DNA of 51,201 nucleotides from an uncultured Candidatus Peribacteria bacterium (GCA_964428205.1 CAYRXE010000001.1:1-51201), one strand, 5' to 3'; shown: positions 3,376-46,254, numbered from the stretch's first letter. Made by a program: numbers and translations. Notes: generated by a model not told the origin, from the letters alone.

Positions 3376-3377
3376 GG

Positions 3378-4415: not shown

Positions 4416-4424
4416 AACGGGCGC

Positions 4425-4430
4425 AGTCTA
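4425..4430 (-). promoter_or_regulatory. -10-like box TAGACT, 9 nt upstream of the gmd ATG
   Basis: Minus strand reads TAGACT gcgcccgtt ATG, within the 41-nt gap after the upstream stop. Confidence 0.4.
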
Positions 4431-4456
4431 CTGGGTCGCTTGAACCCTAGCCAGCC

Positions 4457-8681: not shown

Positions 8682-8689
8682 GCAGGAAG

Positions 8690-8695
8690 TGTATA
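8690..8695 (-). promoter_or_regulatory. -10-like box TATACA, 8 nt upstream of the colD-like ATG 8681
   Basis: Minus strand reads TATACA cttcctgc ATG, in the 74-nt divergent intergenic region. Confidence 0.45.
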
Positions 8696-8743
8696 CGAAA
8701 AAACCCTGCACGCCCGCCTTTTGGCACAGTCAGCATTCTCGGG

Positions 8744-8749
8744 TAGCCT
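8744..8749 (+). promoter_or_regulatory. -10-like box TAGCCT, 6 nt upstream of ATG 8756
   Basis: TAGCCT tcgcgc ATG. Confidence 0.35.
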
Positions 8750-8755
8750 TCGCGC

Positions 8756-9554: not shown

Positions 9555-10829
9555 ATGTCTGATCGTCCTGTCCTCTGCGTCGTGGGTCTTGGCTACGTTG
9601 GCCTGCCCCTTGCTCATGCCTTTGCTGCCAAAGGATATGAGGTCCTTGGCTATGACATCAGCGAGAAGCGCATCACGGAGTTGCAACAGCACACAGACAG
9701 CACCCGCGAACTCACAACGGAACAATTACAGGCAGCACCCATCACTTTTAGCAGTGATGCCGAAATCATGCGCAAGGCAGACGTGATTATTCTCGCCATC
9801 CCAACCCCGGTAGATGACGCAAACAAGCCTGACCTCACACTCGTGGAGTTGGCTTCGGAGAATGTGGGTAAGCACATGAAGAAAGGAGCCATCGTCGTGT
9901 ACGAGTCGACGGTGTACCCGGGAGTTACGGAAGATATCTGCGGACCAATTTTGGAGAGGGCCTCAGGTATGAAGTGCGGAGTCGATTTCACTCTTGGGTA
10001 TTCGCCAGAACGCATCAACCCCGGAGACAAAGAGCACACCGTCGATAAGATTATGAAGATCGTCGCAGGTCAGGATGCTGCGACCTTGGAGAAACTCGCA
10101 ACGCTCTACGGATCGATTGTGACTGCAGGCATCCACAAAGCTTCGTCCATCAAGATCGCCGAAATGGCCAAGGCAATTGAGAATGCACAGCGCGATATCA
10201 ACATCTCCTACATCAACGAGATAGCCATCCTCTGCAGCAAGATTGGTATTCCTACAAAAGAGGTTTTGAACGCTGCAGGTACGAAGTGGAACTTCCTCAA
10301 GTTCCAACCGGGACTCGTAGGAGGCCACTGCATTGGCGTGGATCCGTATTACCTCGTCGAGAAAGCAGACATGCTCGGCATGAAAACTCCGCTCATCAGT
10401 GCGAGTCGCGCCATCAACGACAGTATGGGTTGCTTTGTTGCAGAGCAAGTCGTGGGCGCGCTCAAGAGTGATGCCAAACAGGCAAAGGTTCTCGTGATGG
10501 GTGTGACCTTTAAAGAGAACATCCCAGACACTCGCAACAGCAAAGTCGGTGACGTGATCAAGCATCTGCGTGCCGCAGGCTGCACCGTCAAAGTGCATGA
10601 CGCGCAGGTGACTCGCGAAACGTTGGAGAAGATGACCTACGAACCAGGCTCGCTCGAAGATGGTCCGTTCGATGCCGTGCTCTTGCTCGTCCCACACAAG
10701 GAATACCTGGCACTGAGTAGTGAAGAGTTCGCTGCAGCTCTCAAGCCACAGGGCGTGTTCTTTGACCTTAAATCACTCTTAGACCGCAAGGCATTTGAGG
10801 GAGCAGGCCACACATATATCGCCTTGTAA
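9555..10829 (+). CDS. nucleotide-sugar 6-dehydrogenase, TviB/WbpO-like (UDP-HexNAc to UDP-HexNAcA), 424 aa
   Basis: VVGLGYVGLPLAHAFA, GYSPERINPGD and GLVGGHCIGVDPYYL (catalytic Cys). Start moved from 9522 to ATG 9555 to clear the upstream gene. Confidence 0.88.
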   Translation: MSDRPVLCVVGLGYVGLPLAHAFAAKGYEVLGYDISEKRITELQQHTDSTRELTTEQLQAAPITFSSDAEIMRKADVIILAIPTPVDDANKPDLTLVELASENVGKHMKKGAIVVYESTVYPGVTEDICGPILERASGMKCGVDFTLGYSPERINPGDKEHTVDKIMKIVAGQDAATLEKLATLYGSIVTAGIHKASSIKIAEMAKAIENAQRDINISYINEIAILCSKIGIPTKEVLNAAGTKWNFLKFQPGLVGGHCIGVDPYYLVEKADMLGMKTPLISASRAINDSMGCFVAEQVVGALKSDAKQAKVLVMGVTFKENIPDTRNSKVGDVIKHLRAAGCTVKVHDAQVTRETLEKMTYEPGSLEDGPFDAVLLLVPHKEYLALSSEEFAAALKPQGVFFDLKSLLDRKAFEGAGHTYIAL

Positions 10830-10831
10830 GG

Positions 10832-10837
10832 TACAGT
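10832..10837 (+). promoter_or_regulatory. -10-like box TACAGT, 7 nt upstream of ATG 10845
   Basis: TACAGT aggcgcc ATG. Confidence 0.45.
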
Positions 10838-10844
10838 AGGCGCC

Positions 10845-11984
10845 ATGACGTCTCTTTTGCGTAACACTGTCCTCCTGAGTGCGATCTTGATCATGCTCGT
10901 GGGTGCAACGCTCTACCCGTACGGCGGTGACCCCAGTGCACTCTTCCACATGGATGTTGAGCGCGCAGTCTCGTACTCGGTACCCGAAGGATTCATTATC
11001 CTTGGCGTCCCCGGTTACGACGGCATGCAGTACTACGACATCGCCAAAAACTTTGCGCTCGTGTTTCAGCCCTCACAGTGGCCCGAACTGAATATTTCGG
11101 ATGCCATGTCGTACTCGTACCAACGCGCATTGCTCCCTGCCCTCGCATTTGCATTCTCTTTTAATCAAGTCACAGCCCTCCCGTGGGTATTTTTGATCAT
11201 CAACCTCACATGCTTAGTGCTCACGGGGTTACTGGTCTTCCGCAGAAGCAAGAATCCCCTGTTTGGCTTTGCTCTGGCGCTCTGTCCTGCTGCCATGGTG
11301 GGTTTGCACTTTTCGTTGGCTGAACCTGTGACGCTCTTGCTGTGCACCCTCCTGTTCCTCTTACTCGAAAAGACGCAGCGCATGGGAGCAGTCGAAGTAC
11401 TCCTCCTCTCGGCGCTCGTACTGGCTCGCGAAGTGAACGTGCTCCTCGCAGCGTTCCTTGTCGCATTCTTTTTGTGGAAGTATCAGTGGCGTAACGCACT
11501 CCTCGCATGCATCGGCATTGCGGTCTTCATCGCCTGGCACACGGTCATCTACAAGATCTTTGCGGCCATCCCCTTCTTGTGGAGTACCGATAAGCACGGC
11601 TTCCCTGGATGGGCAGTGCTCGAGATCTTCCTTGGTTGGAAAGGATGGAACGCACGCACACTTTCTTCCATCGCTCTGTGCTTGGGATTCGTTTTGCCTG
11701 CGACGATTATGAGTGTGCAGGAGACGATCAAGACAAGACTCAAGGAGTTACTGCCTTTGGGCGCGCTCGCATTTCTGCTGCTTATGTGGGCCATGCCGGA
11801 CCACATTTGGGGATCGGTCACGAGTATTGGTCGCGTGATCACTCCGGTGTATCCCTTTGTGATACTTCTTTGTGTAAAGCGCAACGATGTATTCGCGCGC
11901 GTACTGACTGGCGCTATTCTGGTGCTCGGCGTCGTGACGGCCGCAGGCCTCATCTCCGTCGTTCATCCCTTTACGTTAAGCTGA
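10845..11984 (+). CDS. polytopic membrane protein, GT-C/PIG-V-like putative glycosyltransferase or glycopolymer assembly protein, 379 aa
   Basis: About 10 hydrophobic helices. Loop-1 motif GYDGMQYYDIAKNF resembles the DGxxYxxIA motif of PIG-V/GT-C-like mannosyltransferases. Confidence 0.5.
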   Translation: MTSLLRNTVLLSAILIMLVGATLYPYGGDPSALFHMDVERAVSYSVPEGFIILGVPGYDGMQYYDIAKNFALVFQPSQWPELNISDAMSYSYQRALLPALAFAFSFNQVTALPWVFLIINLTCLVLTGLLVFRRSKNPLFGFALALCPAAMVGLHFSLAEPVTLLLCTLLFLLLEKTQRMGAVEVLLLSALVLAREVNVLLAAFLVAFFLWKYQWRNALLACIGIAVFIAWHTVIYKIFAAIPFLWSTDKHGFPGWAVLEIFLGWKGWNARTLSSIALCLGFVLPATIMSVQETIKTRLKELLPLGALAFLLLMWAMPDHIWGSVTSIGRVITPVYPFVILLCVKRNDVFARVLTGAILVLGVVTAAGLISVVHPFTLS

Positions 11985-12664
11985 TGCGTTTGAGTGTCAT
12001 CGTCCCCGTCTATAACGAAGCCCGCACCGTCGCGGACATCATGCAGCGCATTGCGTCTGCACTTCCTGATGCTCAGGTGATTTATGTGGATGATGGCTCG
12101 AAGGATGACTCTCTGAAGATCCTCAAAACGCACGCTCGTCCGCATGACCTCGTCCTCACAAAACCAAATGGAGGCAAGGGTTCTGCAATAAAGATGGGAC
12201 TGGAGAAGAGTGAAGGTGCATACACGGTCATCCAGGATGCTGATCTCGAGTACACACCACTCGATATTCCAAAGCTCCTTGCAGAAGCAGAAGCTCACCC
12301 GGGATGTGCGGTCTTTGGTTCCAGATTCCTCACGACGAATCCCGTGATGTACAAACGTTTCTTGATGGGAAACAAAGTGCTGAGCTTGATCGTGAGTATC
12401 CTGTTTGGAAAGCGCATCACCGACAGCTACACCTGCTACAAGCTCTTACCGACCGATGTCTTCCGCGGTCTTGGCATCAAGAGCAGTGGCTTTGAGATGG
12501 AAGCCGAGATCTGTGCCAAGTGCCTGCGCCGAGGAATCCCCGTGCGCGAGCTGCCGATTCACTACACACCAAGGAGTGTCTTAGAGGGCAAAAAGATTAA
12601 ATTTAGTGATGCCTGGAAAGGGCTCTGGATGATGACGAAGATACGATTTGGTAGAGCTAAGTGA
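11984..12664 (+). CDS. GT2 glycosyltransferase, Dpm1-like, 226 aa
   Basis: ORF 11609..12664 trimmed to ATG 11984 (TGATG 1-nt overlap with the upstream stop). Motifs LSVIVPVYNE, YVDDGSKDDS and IQDADLEY. Confidence 0.85.
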   Translation: MRLSVIVPVYNEARTVADIMQRIASALPDAQVIYVDDGSKDDSLKILKTHARPHDLVLTKPNGGKGSAIKMGLEKSEGAYTVIQDADLEYTPLDIPKLLAEAEAHPGCAVFGSRFLTTNPVMYKRFLMGNKVLSLIVSILFGKRITDSYTCYKLLPTDVFRGLGIKSSGFEMEAEICAKCLRRGIPVRELPIHYTPRSVLEGKKIKFSDAWKGLWMMTKIRFGRAK

Positions 12665-12707
12665 AGAGAGCTGAGAGCTGAAGCTCAGCACTCAGCGTTC
12701 AGCTCTC
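12650..12707 (+). repeat. copy A of the palindrome-rich inverted-repeat element upstream of asnB-like gene 1
   Basis: Core 12661-12706 GTGAAGAGAGCTGAGAGCTGAAGCTCAGCACTCAGCGTTCAGCTCT matches the reverse complement of 20786-20831 at 43/46 positions. Internal 10-bp stem GAGAGCTGAA (12673-82) / TTCAGCTCTC (12698-12707). Confidence 0.85.
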
Positions 12708-12730
12708 CGCTCTTACAAGATTGGGCAATA

Positions 12731-12759
12731 TTCTCAGTAATCATGCGTTCCTCTATAGT
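12731..12759 (+). promoter_or_regulatory. putative promoter of asnB-like gene 1 (leaderless)
   Basis: TTCTCA (12731-36), 17-nt spacer, TATAGT (12754-59), then 6 nt to ATG 12766. The blocks CAATATTCTC and TCTATAGT are conserved with identical spacing upstream of the second asnB-like gene. Confidence 0.5.
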
Positions 12760-12765
12760 GAGAGC

Positions 12766-14592
12766 ATGTGCGGTATCGCAGGAATCAGCGGCGAGGACCA
12801 AAAGACTATTGAGGCAATGATCACGTGTTTGCGGCACCGCGGACCGGATGGTGACGCATTTGTGGTTGAGAAAGGCGCATCGTTTGGGCATGCACGTCTG
12901 GCTATTTTGGATCCGCGTCCCATTGGAGACCAACCCATGTGGAACGATGACCGCACAGTGGTGATGGTCTACAACGGAGAAGTTTTTAACTTTAAGGAGC
13001 TACGCGAACAGGAAGGCTTCACCTGCAAGACGAACACCGATACCGAAGTGCTTCTCAAATTGTACGACGTGTACGGCGACAAGTTTGTGGACAAGCTTCG
13101 CGGCATGTTCGTGTTTGCTCTGTACGACACCCGCACGCGCACGTTTGTGATCGCGCGAGACAGTAGCGGCATTAAGCCACTGTTCTATTCCACCGTTGGC
13201 GGTCGCCTCGCATTTGCGTCCGAGATGCGCACACTCTTGGCAGCCATGCCTTCACGACCTGCGATTGATGAGCGCTCGCTCTCGCACTATCTGCGCCTGC
13301 AGTACGTGCCTGGACCACAAACGCTCTGCGAAGGAATTTCCTCCCTTGTACCGGGAACAGTCCTCACCTGGCGCGATGGCCACATGAAACTACGGCACTT
13401 CCGTCCCGATGTCCCCTCGCATGCTCCTTTTAGATCCAAGTCTGAGTTCATGCAGGAGTTCCCTGCGTTGATGGAGGATTCCGTACGCGCGCACATGGTG
13501 TCGGATAGACCCATTGGATTATTTTTGAGCGGCGGCATGGATTCGTCCATCGTGTTGCACCACATGGCAAAGCTGAGCGACCACCCTGTCGAAACATTCA
13601 CGGTGCGCTTCGAAGCAACCGAAGAAGAAGGCGCCAAGAGGTTTAATACCGATGCCGATTTCGCAGCACTCAGCGCAAAGCACTACGGTGCCAACCATCA
13701 TGAAATTCTGCTCACGGCCAAGGATTTTCGTGATCTGTATGCCGAAACGGCGAGGTCGCTCGACCAGCCAAATTCGGACCACGTGTCGGTGGCGCAGTAC
13801 TTGCTGTCTCGCGAAGCAAAGAAGCACGTGGACGTCGCACTCACCGGTGCCGGGGGTGATGAATTGTTCGGAGGATACCCACGCTACCGCATCGCACGTG
13901 TGCTTAAGGCGTTGTCGTGGATGCCGGGAGGGTTACGCAGTGCACTCGCTGGCATGACGTCGTACCCCAAGGATGTACTCGGGATGGACCCAGGATCAGT
14001 GCTGGCAGAACGTCTGCTCGCTCGTCCTATTTCGGAAATCACAAGTGTCGCCAAGGGTGACTGGTTCGACGCACAGGCAACGACCAAGCTCTTCACACAA
14101 CGCTTTGCCGAAGTGCAGAGCTACGATGCCATTCGACAGTTCCAGGAGTTCGATAGGCACCTCTGGCTCGTGGATGAATCACTCAGGCTCACCGATGCCA
14201 CCACCATGGGAAGTGGACTCGAAGGGCGCGTGCCATTCATTGACCCATACATCATCTCTGCCGCGCACGCGGTGCCAAGCAATTGGAATGTGTCACTCAC
14301 GAACACCAAGGTGCTCCTCAAGCAGACCTACCGGAATATTCTGCCGAGTCATTTATTCACACTCGATAAAGCGAGCTTCTATCCCCCACTCGCCAAGTGG
14401 TTACGCCGCGAAGCTTGGCCGCTCGTGGAAGAAATGTTGGAGCATCCACGCATCAAAGAGAGGTTTGATACGGATCGTTTGCGCGTCATCGCCGAGGATC
14501 ACAAGTACCATCGCAAGTACGGGCTCCATCTGCTGTCGTCGCTAATCCAGCTTTCGCACTGGTTTACAGAGGTCTACGACGCCAAAAAGTAG
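12766..14592 (+). CDS. asparagine synthase-like glutamine amidotransferase (WbpS-type sugar/uronate amidotransferase candidate), 608 aa
   Basis: Start set to MCGIAG (Ntn Cys2). Motifs HRGPDG and the SGGMDSS PP-loop. Confidence 0.88.
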   Translation: MCGIAGISGEDQKTIEAMITCLRHRGPDGDAFVVEKGASFGHARLAILDPRPIGDQPMWNDDRTVVMVYNGEVFNFKELREQEGFTCKTNTDTEVLLKLYDVYGDKFVDKLRGMFVFALYDTRTRTFVIARDSSGIKPLFYSTVGGRLAFASEMRTLLAAMPSRPAIDERSLSHYLRLQYVPGPQTLCEGISSLVPGTVLTWRDGHMKLRHFRPDVPSHAPFRSKSEFMQEFPALMEDSVRAHMVSDRPIGLFLSGGMDSSIVLHHMAKLSDHPVETFTVRFEATEEEGAKRFNTDADFAALSAKHYGANHHEILLTAKDFRDLYAETARSLDQPNSDHVSVAQYLLSREAKKHVDVALTGAGGDELFGGYPRYRIARVLKALSWMPGGLRSALAGMTSYPKDVLGMDPGSVLAERLLARPISEITSVAKGDWFDAQATTKLFTQRFAEVQSYDAIRQFQEFDRHLWLVDESLRLTDATTMGSGLEGRVPFIDPYIISAAHAVPSNWNVSLTNTKVLLKQTYRNILPSHLFTLDKASFYPPLAKWLRREAWPLVEEMLEHPRIKERFDTDRLRVIAEDHKYHRKYGLHLLSSLIQLSHWFTEVYDAKK

Positions 14593-14625
14593 GTTTCGGA
14601 CGTAGCAAGGGACCACCCCGGAGGG

Positions 14626-14631
14626 TAGAAT
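14626..14631 (+). promoter_or_regulatory. -10-like box TAGAAT, 7 nt upstream of ATG 14639
   Basis: TAGAAT tttcgca ATG. Confidence 0.5.
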
Positions 14632-14638
14632 TTTCGCA

Positions 14639-15973
14639 ATGGCGACCATCTTTCGCCGGCTTTATAAACTGAGGGGCGTGCCCTTCGTGCAGAATTTCGC
14701 GAAGCTGCAGATTGGCACGGTGATCAGCCTAGGCACCGGCTTTGTATCGCTCGTGGTGTTCCCGCGCGTGCTTGGACTCGAAATGTATGGTCTCTACGCC
14801 GTCGTCGCAGCCTTCGCAGGCTTACTTGGATTCTTCTGTGCGTTTGGACAAGAAACCACCTGCGCCATCTTCTTTGCCGAAGCTACGGGCAAAAAGGATA
14901 GTGCCGCACAGCAATCAGTCCTTCGCTACTTCGTGCAATCGTGGTTACTCACGGTCGTCGTGTCTGTCGTTTTGATCGCGATTGCTCCGTGGCTTGGTGC
15001 GTCTATTGAAGGCAACGTTCTCGTGGGTGACTACGCACGTTTGATTCTCTTGAACATGGTGCTCCAAGCAGCGCCGACACTTTCGTTCATCATGCTGCAG
15101 AACTACCACGAGATAAACACGCTCGTGGTATGGGAGAACACACGCACCGTATTGCAGTTTGCACTCTCGACCATCTTCCTCCTCATGGGCTGGGGCATCG
15201 TGGGAATTTTGCTCGGCCCACTGGTAGTTTCTACGGTGTATTTCCCGCTCTGTTTGCTGCAATACAGGCGCATTGCACGTGAGAGGAATTTGCCTAGCCT
15301 TAGCCAAATAGTGAGGGACGTCACGAGAATGGATACGGGGAAATTCTTCGTCCAAGGTGTATGGATCACGCTCGATAAAAATATTTCGGGAAACCTGTAT
15401 CCCAACCTCTTCATCATGATTCTCAACGCCACAACGACCCTCGAGAACGTGGCTCTCTTCCGTCTCGCACTGCGTCTCGCTTCCCTACCAGGAACGCTGA
15501 TCATGCCGAACGTCTCGCGCTTGGCGACGGTGTACATTCCCAAACTGATCGGCAGTCCAGTCGCACTCATCAAAACGAACTGTGCCAAGCTCATCAAGGG
15601 CGCAACGGGTCTCACCTTCCTCGTGTGCTTGGGTGCAGCCGTGTGTGTTCCGCTCTTCTGGCCGCTTGTGTATGGCGATGAATTTACCGCTGCGATTCCA
15701 CTGTTCCTCGTGCTCCTCCCACTCAACTTGATGGCCGTGACGCACGTGGCCTCTGTCCCTCTGCTGCGTGTACTTGGAAAAACCTGGTCGATGATTGTGG
15801 TGAATGTGATTGGCGTCGCGCTCGCCTGTGGCGGGTACTACGTCTTGCTGCCAGTGATCCCCGCAAACTACGCCATGGCGATTGCCGTGCTGATCTTTAA
15901 CCTCCACACGCTCCTCCTTTTTGCCTACATCGCGCGTCTCCTTAAAACCTACAAACCTGCCGTTCTCGCTTAA
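14639..15973 (+). CDS. MOP-superfamily oligosaccharide flippase (Wzx-like), 444 aa
   Basis: About 12 or more TM helices. N-terminus FVQNFAKLQIGTVISLGTGFV is typical of polysaccharide biosynthesis (Wzx/RfbX) proteins. Confidence 0.75.
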   Translation: MATIFRRLYKLRGVPFVQNFAKLQIGTVISLGTGFVSLVVFPRVLGLEMYGLYAVVAAFAGLLGFFCAFGQETTCAIFFAEATGKKDSAAQQSVLRYFVQSWLLTVVVSVVLIAIAPWLGASIEGNVLVGDYARLILLNMVLQAAPTLSFIMLQNYHEINTLVVWENTRTVLQFALSTIFLLMGWGIVGILLGPLVVSTVYFPLCLLQYRRIARERNLPSLSQIVRDVTRMDTGKFFVQGVWITLDKNISGNLYPNLFIMILNATTTLENVALFRLALRLASLPGTLIMPNVSRLATVYIPKLIGSPVALIKTNCAKLIKGATGLTFLVCLGAAVCVPLFWPLVYGDEFTAAIPLFLVLLPLNLMAVTHVASVPLLRVLGKTWSMIVVNVIGVALACGGYYVLLPVIPANYAMAIAVLIFNLHTLLLFAYIARLLKTYKPAVLA

Positions 15974-16737
15974 GCGCGATACCCCAAGAAAATGCCTTCG
16001 GAGAGCTTACGGACCGTAAATCCTTTGCCCTCCAGGAACTCTTTGAGGATGGCTGGATGGTGCTTTGGATCGAGGGAGAACAGGTGGTAGTTCATCACGA
16101 TGCGATCGATGCGTTTGAAGTACTCATCAGAGAGTCCGTAGAACATGTCGTACTCGGCACCTTCGCAGTTCACCTTCAACAGATCGCAGTGTGCGATGCC
16201 GTGCTTCTCAAACGAAGCAGCGAGCGTCGTGACCGGAACCGAGATGGAGCGACTGCTCTCTGTCTGACGATAGAGCGAGTTCTGCTCTCCTCTCCCTGGC
16301 ATCACGTGCATCTTGAGTTCTCCTGCTTCCCCAGCAATACCTACAGGTTCGATGATGATGCGATCGTGCAATTTGCTCTCATCGACCGTCTTACGGAAGG
16401 TGTGGATGTTCGTGGGCTCTGGCTCGTACGCAATGACCTTTGCCGTGGGCGACTGCGAAGCGACGTACAGCGCAAAAACTCCCACGTGTGCGCCAACATC
16501 GATAACGGTATTGAGCGTATTCCAAGGAATCTCCGGTGCGTCGTACACGCCATCGAGGAAGATGTCATTAAACACAAAAAAGTCCGACGTCTTGGCCCTC
16601 AAGACCATGGTGTGTCCGGTACGGAGTTTGTAGCGAACGTACTCACCCTTGCTCAAACCAAGCCTGTACATGGGATACACCCACCAGTTCGAGACGGTGC
16701 GCATGAGCGCTGCCAAAAGAGAGATCGTCTGTGTCAT
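15970..16737 (-). CDS. FkbM-family SAM-dependent methyltransferase (paralog of 8756..9538), 255 aa
   Basis: VIDVGAHVGVFALY, EPEPTN and LLKVNCEGAEYDMF. Colinear with the first FkbM protein. Confidence 0.85.
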   Translation of the reverse strand: MTQTISLLAALMRTVSNWWVYPMYRLGLSKGEYVRYKLRTGHTMVLRAKTSDFFVFNDIFLDGVYDAPEIPWNTLNTVIDVGAHVGVFALYVASQSPTAKVIAYEPEPTNIHTFRKTVDESKLHDRIIIEPVGIAGEAGELKMHVMPGRGEQNSLYRQTESSRSISVPVTTLAASFEKHGIAHCDLLKVNCEGAEYDMFYGLSDEYFKRIDRIVMNYHLFSLDPKHHPAILKEFLEGKGFTVRKLSEGIFLGYRA

Positions 16738-16779
16738 GATCGAGCATGACCATAACAGAGAGGCAATTTCTCAACAAGA

Positions 16780-17607
16780 TTAAGGCTTTGGACGCAGTGC
16801 CTCAGCGGTAAGGCCGAGTGCAAAGATGGTGGCAGATGTGAAGAACCCGAACACCGTGATGGATGGCACATTGAAGAGCCACGCAAAGAACCCTGCGATA
16901 AAGAGTGTGACAATCGCAAGGAGGAGGAACAGCTTGATGGGGTTGTAGCGCACAATCACCTCGGTCATGTACTGGAGCGTGCGCAGCGAATCGCGAAGCA
17001 TCTTCACATGCGACTTCCCTACTCTCTTGTTGTACGGGATCGGCATGTAATCAACCATTTTGCCCGTGAGGTGGTACGTGAGCGTGAGCGTTGTTGTGAA
17101 ACTAAACCCGCTGCAGAGTCCTGCGAGGAAGGGCGTGATCTGCGACTTACGGAACACCCTCATGCCGGAGTTTACGTCTGGGATGTTGCAGCCTGTGGAC
17201 CACTCGGCGAGGAACAAGAGCATGGCACGGAGCGGACGCTTGAAGACGGATCCTAAGTACTCCTTGCCCTGACGTGCACCTGTGACCATGTCGAGTCCTT
17301 CTTCTAAGCGAGCAACGAGAGCCGGGATCTGATCGATGGGATAGGAACCGTCTGCGTCTGTGAGGATGATGATGTCGTTCTCGGCTGCGCGAATACCATC
17401 TTTGAGACTGTGTCCGTACCCAACGTTGATGGGATGACGAATGACTTTTGCTCCGTGGGCCTTTGCGACGGCACCCGTGTCGTCCGTGGATCCATCATCG
17501 ACTACGACCAATTCGAGCGTCAGCGGGAGCGTTTTAAGACGCGCGAGGACCTCACCGATAGCGGGTCCTTCATTGAATGCCGGGATGATGACGCTTGCGG
17601 ATGACAT
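16780..17607 (-). CDS. GT2 polyprenyl-phosphate sugar synthase (GtrB/ArnC/Dpm1-like) with 2 C-terminal TM helices, 275 aa
   Basis: Trimmed to MSSASVIIPAFNE. Motifs VVVDDGSTDDT and LTDADGSY. C-terminal IKLFLLLAIVTLFIAGFFAWLF and VFGFFTSATIFALGL. Confidence 0.82.
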   Translation of the reverse strand: MSSASVIIPAFNEGPAIGEVLARLKTLPLTLELVVVDDGSTDDTGAVAKAHGAKVIRHPINVGYGHSLKDGIRAAENDIIILTDADGSYPIDQIPALVARLEEGLDMVTGARQGKEYLGSVFKRPLRAMLLFLAEWSTGCNIPDVNSGMRVFRKSQITPFLAGLCSGFSFTTTLTLTYHLTGKMVDYMPIPYNKRVGKSHVKMLRDSLRTLQYMTEVIVRYNPIKLFLLLAIVTLFIAGFFAWLFNVPSITVFGFFTSATIFALGLTAEALRPKP

Positions 17608-18847
17608 GGAAGAGCTGGTCGAAACCGATACCAGAGAGGACAGCATAGCAGAAAAAGAGCGGCACCAGATAGCGCGGAGTGGCGTCTGTGAGCGCAAAAA
17701 GCGCTATGGAATAGGCCATGATAAGGATCAGCAGGGTCTCAAGAACGGAGGGCCTACGCCTATGAAGTACCAGGAACAGAAGCCAGCAAGCACACCCGAT
17801 GTACGTGATGAGCATGCCAAGGCTGATGGCGAGGTTGAGGGTCGTCCCACCGAAAGCACCTACGAATGGAATATGGAATTCGATGATCTCGAAGAGCGAG
17901 ATCCAAAGGTAGTTCGGGAAGTTCGCGAGAATCTTCTGCTGACTCACCTTCGTCACTTCGGCATCGGCCGGAACACCCACGAATCCTTCGGGCCACTTCA
18001 TGTGCCACACGGCATTGAAGCTGCAGTACGGGGAACGTTCACTCCAATCGCGCGAGATGTACTCGGCGTGCAAACAGCGTAGTGGCTCCAATCCAAAGAG
18101 CTGCTCTGATTGTTCTGCACGCACGTACCACTGGAGCACGTTTCGGTAGCACCCGGTAAAACACGGACTCCCCTGCAGTTGTATATTGCGCACGACCCAC
18201 GGTGCACACGCGATGGCGACCGCACATAAGAAGAGTGCGATGTGCTGCCACTTGAGTTTGAGAAAAAAGAAAAACGGGAGCAGGAAGATTGGCAGGAGCA
18301 GGAGTGGTGCGTAGACGAGGATGGCGCAGCCAAGCAAAGCGCCTGATAAAGCAGCGAACTGGATCTTGCGTGTGCGGATCCAGGTGATGAGTGCCGATGT
18401 CACAAAGAGGAAGAGTGAGAGTGCGAGGCTTTCTCGATAGAGGGAGAATGTGACTTTGAAGATCAAAGGCGAAAGCAGCAGAACCGCCGCTGTGATGTAC
18501 GTGGCAGAATCTCCAATAGAAGGACGGGTCACGCGGCAGAAGACGACGACGGCTGCGAGGTACAGGAGTGCTTGGATGAGGAACGCTGCCATTCCGTTTT
18601 GCAGTCCAAAGATGGAATAGACCCCGGCTAAGAACACGGGCATGCCAGGTTCACGTTCAAAGAATGGCTGTCCTTCCCAGGTGTATCCGCCTGTTTTGAT
18701 GATGTTCTCGGCAAGCGTGCTGTACACCGCTCCATCACCGGAAATTGTTTCGCTCGTTGGCAGACTCGACACCCAGTACGAGAACGCGGCAGTCACAACA
18801 ACGAAGAGGGCGATGAGAATGCCGAAGATGACGCTACGTTTGGTCAT
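17570..18847 (-). CDS. GT-C glycosyltransferase, ArnT/PMT_2-like polytopic membrane protein, 425 aa
   Basis: Trimmed to ATG 18847 (ATGA overlap with the asnB-like stop). Loop-1 DGAVYSTLAENIIKTGGY...EREPGMPVF. About 11 hydrophobic helices. Confidence 0.65.
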   Translation of the reverse strand: MTKRSVIFGILIALFVVVTAAFSYWVSSLPTSETISGDGAVYSTLAENIIKTGGYTWEGQPFFEREPGMPVFLAGVYSIFGLQNGMAAFLIQALLYLAAVVVFCRVTRPSIGDSATYITAAVLLLSPLIFKVTFSLYRESLALSLFLFVTSALITWIRTRKIQFAALSGALLGCAILVYAPLLLLPIFLLPFFFFLKLKWQHIALFLCAVAIACAPWVVRNIQLQGSPCFTGCYRNVLQWYVRAEQSEQLFGLEPLRCLHAEYISRDWSERSPYCSFNAVWHMKWPEGFVGVPADAEVTKVSQQKILANFPNYLWISLFEIIEFHIPFVGAFGGTTLNLAISLGMLITYIGCACWLLFLVLHRRRPSVLETLLILIMAYSIALFALTDATPRYLVPLFFCYAVLSGIGFDQLFHVIRKRHHPGIQ

Positions 18848-20733
18848 GCGTCTTGTTGCTTGATCCACTCGGAGAGCGTGAGGAGTGCCCAAATATGGTC
18901 GGAGTAGTCGATGTTCGTCGCGTGGTAGTGCGCGAGGAAGCGCTCCAGTGCGCCCCGATCGAAGATCTCGCGGAAGAGCGGTGGCCCCTGTAACAAGTGA
19001 TCTGCCACGAAGTCTTTTAAGTCCGTACGGAACCAGCGGTTGAGCGGCAGGCGGAAGCCTGTCTTCTTTTTATGCAGGACGTTATCGGGCACAAGACCTT
19101 TGAGCATGCGCTCGCGCAGGATCCACTTCTTCTTATTCCCACGCAGCTTGTACTCGATTGGCATCTGGGCCGTGAACTCCAGGAGCTTGTGATCAAGGAA
19201 CGGTGAACGCGCTTCGAGTCCGTGTGCCATGGCTCCAAGATCCACCTTGGGCATCAAACAATCTGCGAGATACGTCTGCACATCCATGCTCATGGCACGA
19301 TGCACGAGATCGTACGCACGGCCACGTGCAGCCTCGGTGTGTTTGGCGTACCAGAGATCGGTACGTCCGAACTTCTCTTGGTACTTCATGCTATAGAGCT
19401 GCTTCTTTTCTTCTTCGGTGAAGAAGCTGATGTACTGCAAGTAACGCTGCTCCCAAGGGAGCCCCATCGTGCGCTGGAAGCGATTACTGCGATAACTGAG
19501 TGTGGATGGGAACATCCCCTGCCATGATTCGGTCATGAGACGCGCGAAGATGTGCAGCACCCATGGCGTGATGTTCCAGTACTCCGAGAAGTTGAGGATG
19601 GGATAGCGTGCATAGCCGGCAAAGTTCTCGTCTCCCCCATCTCCATTGAGTGCGACGGTCACCACTTTGCGCGTTTCGCGTGCAATCAGGTACGTCGGGA
19701 TGGCGGAAGGATCTGCGTAGGGTTCTTCGTAGGTACGCACAAGTTCCGGGAGCAAGTGAACAATGTCTGGTTCGAGAACGATCGGATGGTGATCAGTGCC
19801 AAAATGCTTCGCGGTGATTGCGGCATAGGGAAGTTCGTTGAAGGCAGGATCTTCGCTTCCAATCGAAAATGTTTTCACAGGATGCGAACTTATCTTACTC
19901 ATCAGTCCAACGATCGCAGCGGAGTCGATACCGCCGGAGAGGAATGCGCCAACAGGGACATCCGCAATCATGCGGAGTTTTACGCTCTCGGTGAGGAGCT
20001 CCATAGAACGCTCTGCCCACTCGTCTTCTGAGAGAGTGAGATCGGTGTTGTACGTGAGCTTCCAGTACTGCTCCATCTTGTGCGTTCCATTCGCAAGGTC
20101 GACCGTCATCAAGTGACCAGCAGGGAGCTTATGAATACCCGTGTACCCCGTGCGTGGAGCCGGCAGGTACATCATCGTCAGATAATCGTGAATCGCCGAC
20201 ACATCGATATCCTTTGGGCAATCAGGCAAACGCTTGAGGGCTTTGAGTTCGGAAGCAAAGGCTAATGTGCCATTGTTGATGAAGTACTTGAGCGGCTTTT
20301 TACCGACCCGATCGCGAGCAATGTAGAGCTTTTTACTTGGACGATCCCACAGAGCAAACGCGAACATGCCGCGTGCACGCTCCAAACATGTGGTGATGCC
20401 GTACTCGATGTACATGTGTAGGAGCACTTCTCCATCTCCGGAGGATTTAAAGTGATGTCCCCTCTCCTGCAGAATTTTTCGCTCTTCTTGAAAGTTATAC
20501 ATCTCACCGTTAAAGACGAGCACGTAATCTTTATCCGCAGAAAAGAGAGGCTGCGCAGAGCGCTCACTTAGGTCGATGATCGAAAGACGCGTCTGGCTAA
20601 TGCCTGCGTTACTATCGTTGAACATGCCACGACCATCGGGGCCGCGGTGCGCGAGGCAACTTGTGAGCAACTCCAATTGCTGCGGATCAACCGCAGAGCC
20701 ATCGAGCCGTACCAGTCCTGCTATACCGCACAT
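18844..20733 (-). CDS. asparagine synthase-like glutamine amidotransferase, second paralog, 629 aa
   Basis: MCGIAG N-terminus, HRGPDG, SGGIDSA PP-loop. Confidence 0.9.
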   Translation of the reverse strand: MCGIAGLVRLDGSAVDPQQLELLTSCLAHRGPDGRGMFNDSNAGISQTRLSIIDLSERSAQPLFSADKDYVLVFNGEMYNFQEERKILQERGHHFKSSGDGEVLLHMYIEYGITTCLERARGMFAFALWDRPSKKLYIARDRVGKKPLKYFINNGTLAFASELKALKRLPDCPKDIDVSAIHDYLTMMYLPAPRTGYTGIHKLPAGHLMTVDLANGTHKMEQYWKLTYNTDLTLSEDEWAERSMELLTESVKLRMIADVPVGAFLSGGIDSAAIVGLMSKISSHPVKTFSIGSEDPAFNELPYAAITAKHFGTDHHPIVLEPDIVHLLPELVRTYEEPYADPSAIPTYLIARETRKVVTVALNGDGGDENFAGYARYPILNFSEYWNITPWVLHIFARLMTESWQGMFPSTLSYRSNRFQRTMGLPWEQRYLQYISFFTEEEKKQLYSMKYQEKFGRTDLWYAKHTEAARGRAYDLVHRAMSMDVQTYLADCLMPKVDLGAMAHGLEARSPFLDHKLLEFTAQMPIEYKLRGNKKKWILRERMLKGLVPDNVLHKKKTGFRLPLNRWFRTDLKDFVADHLLQGPPLFREIFDRGALERFLAHYHATNIDYSDHIWALLTLSEWIKQQDA

Positions 20734-20739
20734 ATGTGA

Positions 20740-20768
20740 ACTATAGATGAAACAGGTACTTGGGAGAA
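20740..20768 (-). promoter_or_regulatory. putative promoter of asnB-like gene 2 (leaderless)
   Basis: Minus strand reads TTCTCC, 17 nt, TATAGT (reverse complement of 20740-45), 6 nt, ATG 20733. Same block order and spacing as at 12731-12759. Confidence 0.5.
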
Positions 20769-20785
20769 TATTGTATATTTAGATA

Positions 20786-20843
20786 AGAGCTGAACGCTGA
20801 GTGCTGAGTTTCAGCTCTCAGAGCTCTTCACTCAGCTCTCACT
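20786..20843 (-). repeat. copy B (inverted) of the palindrome-rich element upstream of asnB-like gene 2
   Basis: The reverse complement of 20786-20831 matches 12661-12706 at 43/46 positions. Similarity continues with one indel to about 20843. Internal 9-bp stem AGAGCTGAA (20786-94) / TTCAGCTCT (20810-18). Confidence 0.85.
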
Positions 20844-20875
20844 AGAAAGAATCAATATGGCAGAGCATCGACAAA

Positions 20876-21679
20876 ATGTTTACACTCCTGCCCATGCAGC
20901 AGAAGCAATACGAATGGAATTGGCAGTGGAACAAGGTCTACGACGATAACCAGTGGCTCTTTACGGAGTGGATCTACCCAAACAAGCTCGAGGATTTCCG
21001 CGGGAAAGACGTTTTAGACTGTGGTTGTGGTGGTGGCCAGCACTTGTCCTTTGTGGCTCCGTACGCGGCTCACGTGACGGGCGTGGATTTGAACTCGACC
21101 GATAGCGCGAAGCGGAATACCGAAAAATTTAACAACGTGACCGTGCTCGAAGGTGATTTGGCTGCGATGAATTTGGGTAAGCAGTTCGACATGGCCTACT
21201 GCATTGGCGTGTTGCATCACACCGATGCTCCAAAAAAGACGTTCGAGAACCTCGCGCGTCACGTAAAGCCGGGTGGTCGCATGATCTTGTGGGTGTATTC
21301 GTACGAAGGAAACTTTTGGAACAGGACGCTCCTCGAAGCATTGAAGAGATGGATTGTGATGAAGCTCCCACGCAGCGCCGTGATGGGAATCGGTCATGTA
21401 CTCACTGCTCTTCTCTATATTCCGATCTACACCATCTACTTACTCCCACTGAAGTTCCTCCCTTTCTACGAGTACTTCCAGAACTGGAGGAAGCTCAGCT
21501 ACAGCCGCAATTTGCTCAACGTGTTCGATAAGCTCAATGCCCCACAGACATGGTTCCTGAGCGAAAAAGACGTACGTGGATACTTCAACGATCAAGAATT
21601 TACCGATGTGCACATTTCGCCGTATAAGGGCGTGAGTTGGCGCGCATCTGGTACTAAGAAGAGGCCCGCAACGGCGTAG
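20876..21679 (+). CDS. class I SAM-dependent methyltransferase, 267 aa
   Basis: VLDCGCGGGQH motif I, DMAYCIGVLHH, VKPGGRMILWV. Confidence 0.8.
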   Translation: MFTLLPMQQKQYEWNWQWNKVYDDNQWLFTEWIYPNKLEDFRGKDVLDCGCGGGQHLSFVAPYAAHVTGVDLNSTDSAKRNTEKFNNVTVLEGDLAAMNLGKQFDMAYCIGVLHHTDAPKKTFENLARHVKPGGRMILWVYSYEGNFWNRTLLEALKRWIVMKLPRSAVMGIGHVLTALLYIPIYTIYLLPLKFLPFYEYFQNWRKLSYSRNLLNVFDKLNAPQTWFLSEKDVRGYFNDQEFTDVHISPYKGVSWRASGTKKRPATA

Positions 21680-21698
21680 CCTGTTGCGGCAAAAAGAT

Positions 21699-21704
21699 TA
21701 GAAT
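21699..21704 (+). promoter_or_regulatory. -10-like box TAGAAT, 6 nt upstream of GTG 21711
   Basis: TAGAAT cggggg GTG. Confidence 0.45.
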
Positions 21705-21710
21705 CGGGGG

Positions 21711-23003
21711 GTGAACCATGAAGTGTTCGTCACCGGCTCCACAGGACTCGTGGGCAAAGCGCTCGTGCCGCATTTGTTGGAACGCGGATACAACGTGCGC
21801 ATTCTCGTACGAGGCAAGGCGCCTTTTGCTGCGCATCCCTTACTCAAGATCATCAAAGGAGACATGCTCCATGGCAACGCACTCAAAGCTGGATGCAGCG
21901 GTGTGCAGACGGTGATTCATTTGGCAGCACGCAAGAATGACGAGCGTGATAGTGAGCAAGTGAACGTTCAAGGTGCACAGCTCTTGGCACAGACGGCAGT
22001 GGATGCAGGTGTCACACACATCGTGCATCTCTCAACACAATCCGTGCTTCTCCCTAAGAAAGGAATCTACGCACAGACCAAGACCGATGCTGAACGCGCG
22101 CTGGAAGATAGTGGTCTACCTGTCACGGAGCTACGCAGTAGTGTGGTATATGGCAGTGAACCCGAAGGAGTCGTGGGCAGCATCGCAAACTTTGCGAAGT
22201 TGCCGATGGTTCCTGTGATTGGGAAAGGCGGCGGACACTTTGCGCCCATCCACAGAGATGATTTGGCTGAGGCCATTGTGCGCGTACTGGAAAAGCCCGA
22301 GCTCCACGGCAATACGTTTGATGTGGGCGGACCGGAGGTGATGAGCTTTACCGAGATTGCCGACAAGATTCTTAAAGAGCGTGGCACACCCAGGAAGTAC
22401 TTCTACATTCCTGCGAGTATCGCGATGGCGATGGCACGCGTGTTCTCGATCCTCCCCCGCTCTCCGCTGACAGTGAGTAACGTGCTCGGTGCGATCCAAG
22501 ATGTACCCATGGATCCGCGTCCGTTCCTGCAGGTGATTGATTTGAAGCCCAGGACCTTTGATGAAGGACTGAAGGAATGCGATTTCTTAAAGCCACCTTC
22601 GGAACCAGACGTCATGCTCCAATACGTCATGTCCGGATTCCACAATGCGCCGGGTGTATTGCCCGAGGTGCGTGAGCGGTACCTGCACGCACTGGAAGTT
22701 CATGGACTAGCGGATGCCGCAGCGCTGACGCCGGATTTGTTGCATGCACCAGGAACACTCCGTGCACTTGATTGGCTTACCAAGCTGCGCGCTCCACAGT
22801 GTGCATTGCAAAGAAAGTTTTTGATCGCCGCTGCCGTGCGCGAAACAACACCCGAAACAGCAGCGACTCTACTACCTCCTGCTCGTGGCGCATTTCACGT
22901 GGTGATGAATCTGATTGGTATTGGCATTGCCCAAGTGGTTGTCGTGATTCGCACGCTCCTGCTTTTACTTCGTCCCGGTCTCTGGAAACGCTATGTCGCC
23001 TGA
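21711..23003 (+). CDS. NAD(P)-binding SDR (NmrA/NDUFA9-like) with a C-terminal extension of about 130 aa ending in a hydrophobic anchor, 430 aa
   Basis: VFVTGSTGLVGKALVPHLLERGY Rossmann motif and YAQTK catalytic pair. C-terminal segment AFHVVMNLIGIGIAQVVVVIRTLLLLL. Confidence 0.78.
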   Translation: MNHEVFVTGSTGLVGKALVPHLLERGYNVRILVRGKAPFAAHPLLKIIKGDMLHGNALKAGCSGVQTVIHLAARKNDERDSEQVNVQGAQLLAQTAVDAGVTHIVHLSTQSVLLPKKGIYAQTKTDAERALEDSGLPVTELRSSVVYGSEPEGVVGSIANFAKLPMVPVIGKGGGHFAPIHRDDLAEAIVRVLEKPELHGNTFDVGGPEVMSFTEIADKILKERGTPRKYFYIPASIAMAMARVFSILPRSPLTVSNVLGAIQDVPMDPRPFLQVIDLKPRTFDEGLKECDFLKPPSEPDVMLQYVMSGFHNAPGVLPEVRERYLHALEVHGLADAAALTPDLLHAPGTLRALDWLTKLRAPQCALQRKFLIAAAVRETTPETAATLLPPARGAFHVVMNLIGIGIAQVVVVIRTLLLLLRPGLWKRYVA

Positions 23004-24555
23004 AGTCATCGTCATCGGCAGTGGACCTGCAGGCGTACATGCTGCGCAGGCTCTTGTTGATCAAGGTATCAAAGTGACGATGGTCGATGGCGGTGAATCT
23101 GCACCCAGGGTTCTCACCGAACCGGTGACGTCCTGGACGCACATGCGCAAAACCAAGACGGACCAGTGGAGGTGGTTTCTTGGAGAGGATTTATCTGGAA
23201 TCCCTGTGGAGGGACTTAAAGGAGGACTGGGCGGTGGCATGACGAGTGGAAACAGGAAGTTTGTACTTTCACGAACAGAAGAAGCATTGCCTGTGAAAAC
23301 AACGGACGTACCACTGGTGCAAACACTCGCCGAAGGCGGCCTTGGCGCAGTGTGGGGTGCCACGAGTGCGTACCTGAGCGATGCAATGTTGGAACAGATG
23401 GGACTCCCTGTAGCGGATATGCAGGAACACTACCGCGCTGTGACAAAGAGGATTGGCGTGAGCGGACCACCCAGCGTGTATGGCACACAACCTGCGTTGC
23501 CGTTGGATCACCATGCAGAAGCCATGCACAACGCATACGAAGCGCAGAAGCCTTGGTGGGACGAGAGCGGAATGAAACTGGGTCAGCCACACTCTGCCGT
23601 ACTTACAGAAAATCTTGGTGATCGCCATGCGAGTAGCACGTTCGATATGGATTATTATTCGGACGCTGGAAAGAGTGTGTACCGCCCGCAGTGGACGCTT
23701 GAGCAATTAAAAAAGAATCCACTCTTTACCTACCAGCCACACGTACTCGTGGAAGCTATTCGCGAACGTGACGACGGAGTCGTGATCGAAGGTCGTTCAC
23801 TCGCCGCCTGGTCGCAAGGACATGCGCAAATCGTCCACGGAACGCATGCCGTTTTGTGCGCAGGAGCGGTGAATAGCGCGCGCATTTTGCTCGCGAGTTT
23901 GGACAAGCACGACCCTGTGCCATTCGTCGCCAAGTCTCACGCCTTCATTGCGGGATTGCGACTACAAGCTCTTGGGAAGGGCGGTCCGGAGCACAGGATG
24001 AGTTCGTGCCAGCTCGTCATGGAAGAGGCTCCCTACACGCCAAGTTCTTTTTGCGCTCAGCTCTACAGCTATCGCTCGCTCTTGCTCTTTCGATTACTGG
24101 GTTCACTCCCGCTGCCAACACCTCTCGCGATGAAGGCAGCAGCACTGCTCTCCCCTGCCCTCGTGATTGCCGATGTGCGCTTCGCGACACCTACACCCAA
24201 TGCGACACTGCAGTGGACCGGCGACATGCTTGATGTGAAGTCGATCGCAACCGAGGAGTCTCGCAAAGAGGCGCATGCGACCCTTGCTCGCGTGCGCGCT
24301 GGCTTGCGTAAATCCGGTGTGACTCCAGTGAAGACGATGCTGTTGCCTGTTGGTAGTAGCTCGCACTACGGATGCACGATTCCTGTGAACGGATCTGTCC
24401 TGGGATGTGATGCAGATGGCCAAGTGCACGGCATGAGCAGAACACTCGTAGCCGATGCCTCCATGTTCGTGACGCTCCCCGCGCACCCACACACACTCAC
24501 GATCATGGCCAACGCCAATCGCATTGGCACGATCTTAGGCAATAGGCTGCGGTAA
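22993..24555 (+). CDS. GMC-family FAD-dependent oxidoreductase, 520 aa
   Basis: VIVIGSGPAGVHAAQAL FAD fold. C-terminal LVADASMFVTLPAHPHTLTIMANANRIG is typical of the GMC_oxred_C domain. It overlaps the upstream SDR gene by 11 nt. Confidence 0.78.
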   Translation: MSPEVIVIGSGPAGVHAAQALVDQGIKVTMVDGGESAPRVLTEPVTSWTHMRKTKTDQWRWFLGEDLSGIPVEGLKGGLGGGMTSGNRKFVLSRTEEALPVKTTDVPLVQTLAEGGLGAVWGATSAYLSDAMLEQMGLPVADMQEHYRAVTKRIGVSGPPSVYGTQPALPLDHHAEAMHNAYEAQKPWWDESGMKLGQPHSAVLTENLGDRHASSTFDMDYYSDAGKSVYRPQWTLEQLKKNPLFTYQPHVLVEAIRERDDGVVIEGRSLAAWSQGHAQIVHGTHAVLCAGAVNSARILLASLDKHDPVPFVAKSHAFIAGLRLQALGKGGPEHRMSSCQLVMEEAPYTPSSFCAQLYSYRSLLLFRLLGSLPLPTPLAMKAAALLSPALVIADVRFATPTPNATLQWTGDMLDVKSIATEESRKEAHATLARVRAGLRKSGVTPVKTMLLPVGSSSHYGCTIPVNGSVLGCDADGQVHGMSRTLVADASMFVTLPAHPHTLTIMANANRIGTILGNRLR

Positions 24556-46066: not shown

Positions 46067-46081
46067 TAGACTGGGTGGCTC

Positions 46082-46203: not shown

Positions 46204-46220
46204 TGATGTTTCTTTGGTTA

Positions 46221-46247
46221 CTTTCTTTGTATGGCAGACAAAGAAAG
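46221..46247. terminator. perfect 9-bp hairpin next to the stop of 46255..47277 (possible terminator without a U-tract)
   Basis: CTTTCTTTG (46221-29), 9-nt loop, CAAAGAAAG (46239-47). Confidence 0.3.
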
Positions 46248-46254
46248 TGACAAC

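Follow-up and report, generated by a model that had tools for sequence, protein, structure and literature searches.

The DNA described here, referred to below as the window, is a stretch of 51,201 nucleotides (nt) from an uncultured Candidatus Peribacteria bacterium (GCA_964428205.1, CAYRXE010000001.1:1-51201) and constitutes one large glycan-biosynthesis cluster. Within it, two asnB-like genes are each preceded by a copy of the same short intergenic element, a quasi-palindrome of 7-nt units, and the two copies (A and B) form an inverted repeat that brackets six genes. The best named homologues of the window proteins belong to Candidatus Peribacteria (Peregrinibacteriota; about 57-61% identity), and the gene assignments that an earlier note had made from the sequence hold when compared with Pfam domains and gene calls. 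The elements and the surrounding genes are arranged as follows, the coordinates of the FkbM, GT2 and PMT_2-like genes having been converted from L001 with an offset of +2765:

12653-12713, plus strand: copy A of the heptad quasi-palindrome, overlapping the GT2 gene in its last four codons plus stop
20786-20846, minus strand: copy B of the heptad quasi-palindrome, in the spacer from which asnB2 and the methyltransferase gene diverge
11984-12664, plus strand: GT2 glycosyltransferase (Pfam Glycos_transf_2; 226 aa), last gene of the upstream unit; the first units of copy A coincide with its final 12 nt
12766-14592, plus strand: asnB1, Asn_synthase plus class II glutamine amidotransferase (Pfam), protein start MCGIAG
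14639-15973, plus strand: wzx-like flippase (Polysacc_synt; Pfam, gene call), second gene of the asnB1 unit
15970-16737, minus strand: FkbM methyltransferase of the asnB2 unit (Pfam, gene call)
16780-17607, minus strand: GT2 of the asnB2 unit (Pfam, gene call)
17570-18847, minus strand: PMT_2/GT-C-like protein of the asnB2 unit (Pfam, gene call)
18844-20733, minus strand: asnB2, Asn_synthase plus glutamine amidotransferase (Pfam), MCGIAG start at 20733
20876-21679, plus strand: class I S-adenosylmethionine (SAM) methyltransferase (Pfam), divergent from asnB2; a second ATG at 20894 is a possible start

The genes asnB1 and wzx on the one side and asnB2, GT-C, GT2 and FkbM on the other form two convergent units, the stop codons of which overlap by 4 nt. 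Near this convergent pair there are only two sizeable spacers, of 101 and 142 nt, and both hold the element. The two amidotransferases are 32% identical over their full length, in line with the one third that had been estimated by eye for their N-terminal regions. Pfam searches of the window and of 5.8 kb of additional flank on one side returned no regulator, DNA-binding, recombinase or transposase domain; Rfam gave no match for either the element or the window, and no tRNA or tmRNA genes were found.

An inverted-repeat search of the window returns the arms 12653-12706 and 20786-20839 as reverse complements of 54 nt that are identical at 50 of 54 positions (93%) and separated by 8079 nt, the full element comprising 61 nt in each copy. 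Three of the mismatches (12669, 12670 and 12683) lie in the 46-nt core at 12661-12706 and the fourth (12659) lies outside it. The inverted pair is hence real and sits where the earlier note had placed it, the core with three mismatches is borne out, and so is the extension of the similarity to the end of the GT2 gene, the last four codons of which (...GRAK*) are covered by copy A. Aligned locally, the two copies score 88, compared to a mean of 21.6 and a maximum of 42 for shuffled sequences, and a 34-nt core pattern searched with up to three mismatches hits only these two sites in the window and none in 100 shuffles. No further copy is present in the 5.8 kb of extra flank, which leaves the two copies of the 51-kb window, and searches of JGI metagenome contigs and of phage and plasmid records did not turn up a third. 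A BLAST search of the phage and plasmid records likewise gave no match to the element, to which the low-complexity filter may have contributed, and a metagenome scan for the back-to-back junction pattern returned 41 matches in coding DNA that look like chance.

Both copies have the same relative orientation upstream of the two paralogous asnB promoters, and the identity between them is a mosaic in which the core (50/54), GCTCTTA (7/7), CAATATTCTC (10/10) and TCTATAGT (8/8) are separated by randomised stretches. The copies differ in length by a single 7-nt indel that corresponds to one repeat unit, copy B being one heptad shorter on the promoter side. This indel also accounts for the distances between core and ATG of 59 nt in copy A and 52 nt in copy B, both of which had been given correctly.

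The 'palindrome-rich' core consists of two back-to-back arrays of 7-nt units, namely (GCTGANN)x4 followed by (NNTCAGC)x4, which together make up the quasi-palindrome. In copy A, the units read AGA GCTAAGT GAAGAGA GCTGAGA GCTGAAG / CTCAGCA CTCAGCG TTCAGCT CTCCGCT CT. The right arm has three exact TCAGC units and one degenerate unit, the left arm two exact and two degenerate ones, and the two left-arm units with an exact GCTGA are different units in each copy. The lag-7 autocorrelation is 0.61 in copy A and 0.54 in copy B, values that were reached by none of 5000 shuffles, and TRF reports a period-7 array at 12666-12685. The perfect stem around a 15-nt loop that had been described for each copy is confirmed with 10 bp in copy A (GAGAGCTGAA / TTCAGCTCTC, 12673-12682 with 12698-12707) and 9 bp in copy B; it spans the NN positions, and perfect stems of 10 bp or more occur just twice in the window, the one in copy A included. 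Folded as RNA, either strand gives -26 to -34 kcal/mol, and in the direction of asnB the values are -33.6 kcal/mol (z -3.1) for copy A and -30.0 kcal/mol (z -2.3) for copy B.

Downstream of each copy, the blocks shared by the two asnB upstream regions fit a sigma-70-type -35/-10 pair:

12726-12759, plus strand: promoter-like region of asnB1, with CAATATTCTC at 12726-12735, -35 TTCTCA at 12731-12736, a 17-nt spacer and -10 TATAGT at 12754-12759
20740-20773, minus strand: promoter-like region of asnB2, with CAATATTCTC at 20773-20764, -35 TTCTCC at 20768-20763, a 17-nt spacer and -10 TATAGT at 20745-20740

The -10 box of asnB1 lies within the block TCTATAGT (12752-12759), and at both genes the -10 ends 6 nt before the ATG. 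As had been noted earlier, the blocks are exact at both sites and 6 nt lie between TCTATAGT and the ATG, whereas the gap between the blocks, previously given as 18 nt, is in fact 16 nt in both cases. Exact matches to CAATATTCTC and TCTATAGT occur in the window solely at the two asnB upstream regions, and TTCTCA-17-TATAGT (12731-12759) is one of two sigma-70-like sites that a promoter scan detected in 9.5 kb. If the additional degenerate heptad in copy A is taken into account, both promoters have their -35 about 20 nt downstream of the array end.

Class II (Ntn) glutamine amidotransferases use as their N-terminal nucleophile the Cys that is exposed when the initiator Met is removed. Since this Cys must follow the initiator Met and both proteins begin with MCGIAG, the asnB start codons are fixed. 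The 6 nt between -10 and ATG are not conserved and contain no Shine-Dalgarno motif. From the position of the -10 and the fixed ATG, it is most likely that the asnB mRNAs are leaderless, and the palindrome, ending about 20 nt upstream of the -35, would hence lie outside the mRNA. The nearest distinct relative, a lineage here termed L036, has the same layout at asnB2 (CAATCTTCTCC-17-TATAGT-6-ATG), and a TATA(G/C)T box 6-11 nt before an MCGIAG or MCGIAA start is found in L036, L038, L040, L041 and L210 as well, which suggests that asnB mRNAs that are leaderless, or nearly so, are a trait of the Peribacteria-like group. Such boxes (12754-12765 and 20734-20745 in the window, 9926-9937 in L036) occur at all Peribacteria-like asnB genes that have a spacer.

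L036 is fully syntenic with the window in the same orientation, and its AsnB1 and AsnB2 are 91% and 80% identical to those of the window. Its spacer between GT2 and asnB1 is only 38 nt long and does not contain the element, the window having about 63 nt more at this place, and the two GT2 proteins end at equal length (...KIRFGRAK* in the window, ...KIRLGPKK* in L036). Upstream of asnB2, L036 has kept the promoter blocks (CAATCTTCTCC ... TCATCTATAGTT), with a different, purine-rich palindrome in the place of copy B. The possibility that the latter is a diverged homologue with compensatory changes from GCTGA/TCAGC to GATGA/TCATC was rejected, as its score of 15 was reached by 215 of 500 shuffles. 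At copy A, no target-site duplication is recognisable, the flanks being too diverged from L036 to judge. The database protein P0002, which represents AsnB2 of L036 with 608 aa, is truncated, its called start being an internal Met 63 nt downstream of the true MCGIAG start at L036 9938 (L036 9938-10000).

Both asnB types are conserved across many relatives, and it follows that the gene duplication is ancient and the element young. A remnant of the original asnB duplication could accordingly be dismissed as the source of the similarity, given the 32% identity between the paralogs and the retention of both types across relatives at 60-65%. Copying of the whole 115-nt upstream region in a single recent event was rejected too, since 93% identity in the core contrasts with randomised stretches elsewhere, among them the -35/-10 spacer. 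As the element is missing from L036, the near-identity of its copies points to recent copying or conversion. The earlier observation that the non-coding element is far more alike than the genes it precedes is correct (93% vs 32%); this contrast suggests the youth of the element and is by itself no proof of purifying or long-term selection. Of the two explanations that had been offered for it, recent spread or gene conversion fits best with the absence of the element from L036, whereas selection does not follow from conservation alone. The copies thus look like a recently copied boundary element rather than an ancient conserved switch.

Three Logan assemblies from the same population (DRR685533, SRR16481182 and SRR14461613) are 99.1-100% identical to the window and carry identical elements, and are hence uninformative on variation. 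Together with the window, these four assemblies are identical across 10-22.5 kb, with no variation in element length. Between the window and the DRR685533 contig there are 177 differences that fall into three blocks (2500-4500, 7000-9000 and 22500-24500), positions 10000-22500 being identical, and this clustering suggests mosaic recombination in the glycan cluster.

In several Peribacteria-like loci, strong hairpins that are unrelated to the element occupy the slot that separates the stop codon of the preceding gene from the asnB -10. This slot holds a 13-bp stem in L038, a TATTAAGGG-type palindrome in L040, a 25-bp perfect stem (-53.5 kcal/mol) in L041 and a canonical terminator (GCGCTGACAgggaTGTCAGCGC + T7) followed by TATACT-8-ATG in L210. 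In L040 and L041, similar hairpins recur at further gene boundaries of the same genome and thus form families, and the TATTAAGGG type of L040 stands upstream of both an asnB1-like gene and a DegT gene. Judged from these loci, a hairpin followed by a putative promoter is a common layout upstream of asnB in this group, the hairpins themselves being genome-specific repeat families. The palindromes are of the TATTAAGGG, GTCACCC and CCCTTTCCC types (L040 9868-9945 and 20195-20280; L041 25-91, 9912-9977, 6132-6158 and 21246-21278). The terminator of L210 (GCGCTGACA-ggga-TGTCAGCGC + T7, about 9940-9975), which precedes an asnB2-like gene, contains GCTGA/TCAGC pentamers in the same GCTGA-first order as the window element; this may be coincidence.

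From our point of view, these observations can tentatively be combined into a picture in which each element forms, together with the adjacent promoter, a cassette that insulates the two convergent units, the hairpin acting as terminator or insulator. We give this reading preference rather than confidence. The 61-nt quasi-palindrome would fold as a stable, near-symmetric hairpin on either strand, and about 20 nt downstream of it a sigma-70-type promoter would drive a leaderless asnB transcript. After the split from the nearest sampled relative, one copy would have served as the source of the other, or a third as the source of both, be it by ectopic conversion, template switching or transposition-like spread, and one later 7-nt slippage event would have set the copies apart. 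Each hairpin would mark the boundary at the outer edge of its convergent unit: transcription that enters from the GT2 operon would end at copy A, antisense read-through leaving the convergent pair would be halted by both copies, and each unit would then depend on its own promoter alone. Such read-through out of the pair is plausible, as the stop codons of the two units overlap with no terminator between them. A boundary role would also fit the position of copy A, the layout in the relatives and the symmetry of the element.

Several observations weigh against a cassette of this kind. A U-tract after the hairpin is absent from both strands of both copies (the flanks being CCGCTCTTACAAG and TATCTAAATATAC), and a terminator scan of both strands listed nothing at 12.65-12.72 kb and 20.78-20.85 kb. 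The genes on the two sides of copy B diverge, which leaves it no obvious upstream gene to serve as a classical terminator. The hairpin is further dispensable in L036 at asnB1, and the spacers at the asnB2 site of L037 (16 nt) and L040 (46 nt) are free of a hairpin as well, from which it follows that the hairpin is not essential. Finally, if core and promoter were copied together, a core that is 93% identical amid randomised stretches would indicate that the sequence itself has been under selection or has been converted repeatedly, neither of which is expected of a role that depends on structure alone. Should the reading nevertheless be correct, it would provide a clear example of transcription insulation in the compact genomes of the candidate phyla radiation. 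To our knowledge, almost nothing has been established about how transcription is started, stopped and insulated in these bacteria. The presence of the element in one lineage and its absence or replacement in the next further indicate that regulatory spacers of surface-glycan clusters turn over fast, which is relevant to the reshuffling of glycan loci.

The heptad of the element is not restricted to this locus. The 20-mer CTCAGCACTCAGCGTTCAGC recurs in 33 loci of species-representative genomes from at least 10 phyla, none of them Peribacteria-like, and all of these are tandem NNTCAGC arrays. With regard to the concern that the element might be a generic genome-wide repeat, this means that its 20-nt core does recur in other phyla, because it is built of a common heptad, whereas the whole element was found nowhere else in the searches, which covered about 57 kb of the source genome. 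The arrays, sampled from genome contigs (L003-L035) and from a scan of IMG/VR viral contigs for four phased TCAGC units (L084-L269, among the matches listed), typically consist of a stop codon, AGC, about four NNTCAGC units, a loop of mostly 8-12 nt, about four GCTGANN units, GCT and the start of the next gene, as exemplified by the following stretches:

L119, 2868-2930: TCAGC-heptad hairpin
L167, 2083-2154: TCAGC-heptad hairpin
L093, 1812-1878: TCAGC-heptad hairpin

They occur in Acidobacteriota, Planctomycetota, Chloroflexota, Cyanobacteria and Gammaproteobacteria, with Thioalkalivibrio denitrificans ALJD and Crocosphaera among the carriers, as well as in many phage-like contigs, and their density reaches up to 14 per 9 kb. 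Among the matches listed, 41 of 42 distinct hairpins lie outside long open reading frames and 29 of 42 within 60 nt of the stop of one. Only the TCAGC pentamer is conserved, the NN positions showing Watson-Crick pairing in 26% of cases vs 29% in shuffles. The order of the arms is strongly biased: divergent pairs spaced by less than 95 nt are absent from the fetched loci, as against 67 convergent ones, and the IMG/VR stretches comprise 74 convergent vs 2 divergent ones (about 37:1). The conserved pentamer, the non-complementary NN positions and this polarity suggest recognition by a protein over simple folding. These hairpins correspond to no Rfam family, and searches by exact sequence or keyword found no published description of them, only general papers on heptamer repeats. 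They point to an unrecognised, widely shared boundary signal that may matter more than the asnB element itself.

With these convergent hairpins the window element shares the pentamer, the 7-nt phase, about four units per arm and an intergenic position at gene boundaries, and its right arm matches the arrays at 20 of 20 positions. In contrast, its polarity is the opposite one (GCTGA arm first), which is rare elsewhere, its arms are truly complementary (10-bp stem) while the NN positions of the class are not, and its arrays are separated by a loop of 3 nt or none instead of the typical 8-12 nt. Owing to the opposite polarity and the complementary arms, we did not file it as a member of this class. 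One could speculate that it is a reversed-polarity relative, read as an operator or boundary site by a widespread protein factor, although we regard this as improbable.

Among known systems, the promoter-early stem-loop (PeSL) cassettes of T4-type phages, for which promoter and terminator activity as well as recombination between copies have been demonstrated (Arbiol et al. 2010, PMC2839356), offer a close parallel. They too are short repeated intergenic units in which a stem-loop accompanies a sigma-70-like promoter; they are found at the borders of gene modules and resemble one another far more than the surrounding genes do. Unlike the present element, PeSL cassettes are phage-borne and occur in many copies, whereas here two copies with a heptad stem, no U-tract and no sign of recombination lie in a bacterial glycan cluster, with both activities being predicted ones. 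REP and REPIN sequences are present in tens to hundreds of dispersed copies per genome and are associated with a RAYT transposase and a conserved GTAG head. As in REP, BIME and REPIN sequences, the window element is a short, imperfect extragenic palindrome at the 3' end of a gene, near-identical within the genome and not conserved between species, with 12 nt of overlap with coding DNA at copy A. Two copies are visible in about 57 kb; the element differs in its 7-nt periodicity and fixed promoter-adjacent position, and neither a RAYT (IS200/IS605-like) transposase in the window nor GTAG at the element ends was found.

Heptanucleotide repeats such as TAACTGA (PMC4679880) and GGGNATC (PMC4692102) are head-to-tail arrays of near-identical units. 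With these and with the cyanobacterial STRR repeats, the element has in common the 7-nt units, the intergenic position near stop or start codons, and a sporadic occurrence, and the one-unit difference between its copies may likewise stem from slippage, whereas here four degenerate units face four inverted ones to form a hairpin, and only two loci are involved. Heptads may also serve as operators, as is the case for omega, the ribbon-helix-helix repressor of pSM19035 (PMC9499535, PMC2441792), and for the TTTTGAT heptads at the ctxAB promoter, which are 7-bp operator units. Contiguous 7-bp units in direct and inverted orientation (4+4 here) at or just upstream of a promoter are shared with these systems; there is, however, no sequence relation and no cognate regulator was found in the window or flank, and binding is hypothetical. 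Compared to intrinsic (bidirectional) terminators, a stable, G+C-containing symmetric hairpin follows a stop codon at copy A, and L210 has a canonical terminator in the same slot, but neither side has a U-tract and no co-directional gene precedes copy B. Invertible DNA segments share the flanking inverted repeats, while no recombinase was found in window and flank and no second orientation in the four assemblies and L036. Overall, the element, as predicted here, is an intergenic palindromic boundary repeat fused to a putative promoter and as such joins a known type.

The main rival to the insulating cassette is a shared operator, in which the heptads would be bound by a regulator, for example a ribbon-helix-helix protein acting cooperatively on 7-bp units, that co-regulates both units. 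The same orientation and the equal spacing of about 20 nt to the -35 would be expected of such a site, the two promoters share blocks that are unique in the window, and it is the sequence, beyond the structure, that is 93% conserved beside a randomised spacer. Arrays of direct and inverted 7-bp units near promoters are moreover an established operator architecture, and the widespread TCAGC hairpins, with their retained pentamer, unpaired NN positions and 74:2 polarity, fit protein recognition better than plain folding. However, the polarity of the window element is opposite to that class, no regulator-like protein was detected by Pfam in the 51-kb window or the 5.8 kb of flank, and exact GCTGA is present in just two of four left-arm units that differ between the copies. 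L036, in addition, keeps the genes and the asnB2 promoter blocks, yet lacks the element at asnB1 and has an unrelated palindrome at asnB2. We therefore consider an operator conceivable, although the odds are against it. Somewhat less probable still is a neutral or selfish palindrome with no role for asnB, produced by heptad slippage and hairpin-mediated template switching or spread as a small REP/MITE-like mobile repeat, which would have landed in two of the few spacers on offer. Its lineage-specific occurrence and absence from the sister lineage, the one-heptad indel as a trace of slippage and the intergenic palindrome families of related genomes, which include non-asnB sites, would all agree with this, as would the fact that heptanucleotide repeats are the commonest long simple-sequence class in many bacteria and occur sporadically (PMC4679880). 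Yet we estimate that the same orientation and distance at two paralogous promoters would arise by chance in about 1 of 50 cases, assuming about 10 usable spacers, and 60 nt of useless DNA kept twice would be unexpected in an extremely compact genome; neither a transposase or RAYT gene nor a recognisable target-site duplication is present.

Two further explanations appear very unlikely. At the RNA level, the hairpin could influence stability or translation from within the 5' leader of the methyltransferase mRNA or a GT2-asnB1 co-transcript, or the number of heptads could switch expression in a phase-variable manner. The promoter scan detected no sigma-70-like promoter between copy B and the methyltransferase start, and the transcript may thus begin upstream of or within the element; the copies differ by exactly one heptad, and tandem repeats in 5' untranslated regions and promoters are known phase-variation devices (PMC12721329, PMC4679880). 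Against this stand the position of the element upstream of the -35, i.e., neither between -35 and -10 nor in the asnB transcript, the lack of an Rfam match, the constant length in four assemblies that are identical over 10-22.5 kb, and the degenerate units, which disfavour slippage. Even more doubtful is the idea, raised in the earlier note, that recombination between the two copies inverts the 8.1 kb and six genes between them. This segment is indeed bracketed by a 54-nt inverted repeat that includes a 34-nt core block, but a single orientation and no alternative junction were seen in the window, DRR685533, SRR16481182, SRR14461613 and the sister lineage, which itself lacks copy A, and Pfam revealed no recombinase gene in window and flank. 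As both promoters lie inside the repeats, inversion would also not rewire the expression of the enclosed genes, and we regard this proposal as the least likely of all.

Beyond the element, some minor features of the window deserve mention. Its convergent gene pairs almost all overlap or abut (15970-15973, 25687-25690, 27979-28033, 31022/31023 and 42550-42569) and thus leave no room for terminators between them, which suggests either extensive antisense read-through or termination signals within coding DNA. The start of the methyltransferase gene next to copy B is uncertain, as the L036 gene call matches the second ATG at 20894 (window 20876-20896, L036 9735-9760); the 18 nt separating the two ATGs are conserved as DNA and not as protein. 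The largest spacer of the window (46067-46254, 188 nt), which is G+C-rich and lies between convergent genes, contains a hairpin at 46220-46248 (ACTTTCTTTGT-atggcag-ACAAAGAAAGT) that has no Rfam or tRNA match. A near-identical hairpin (CTACTTTCTTGT-atcacgg-ACAAGAAAGTAG) is found in a spacer of the distant relative L041 (12611-12641), and the structure may represent a conserved terminator or a small RNA.

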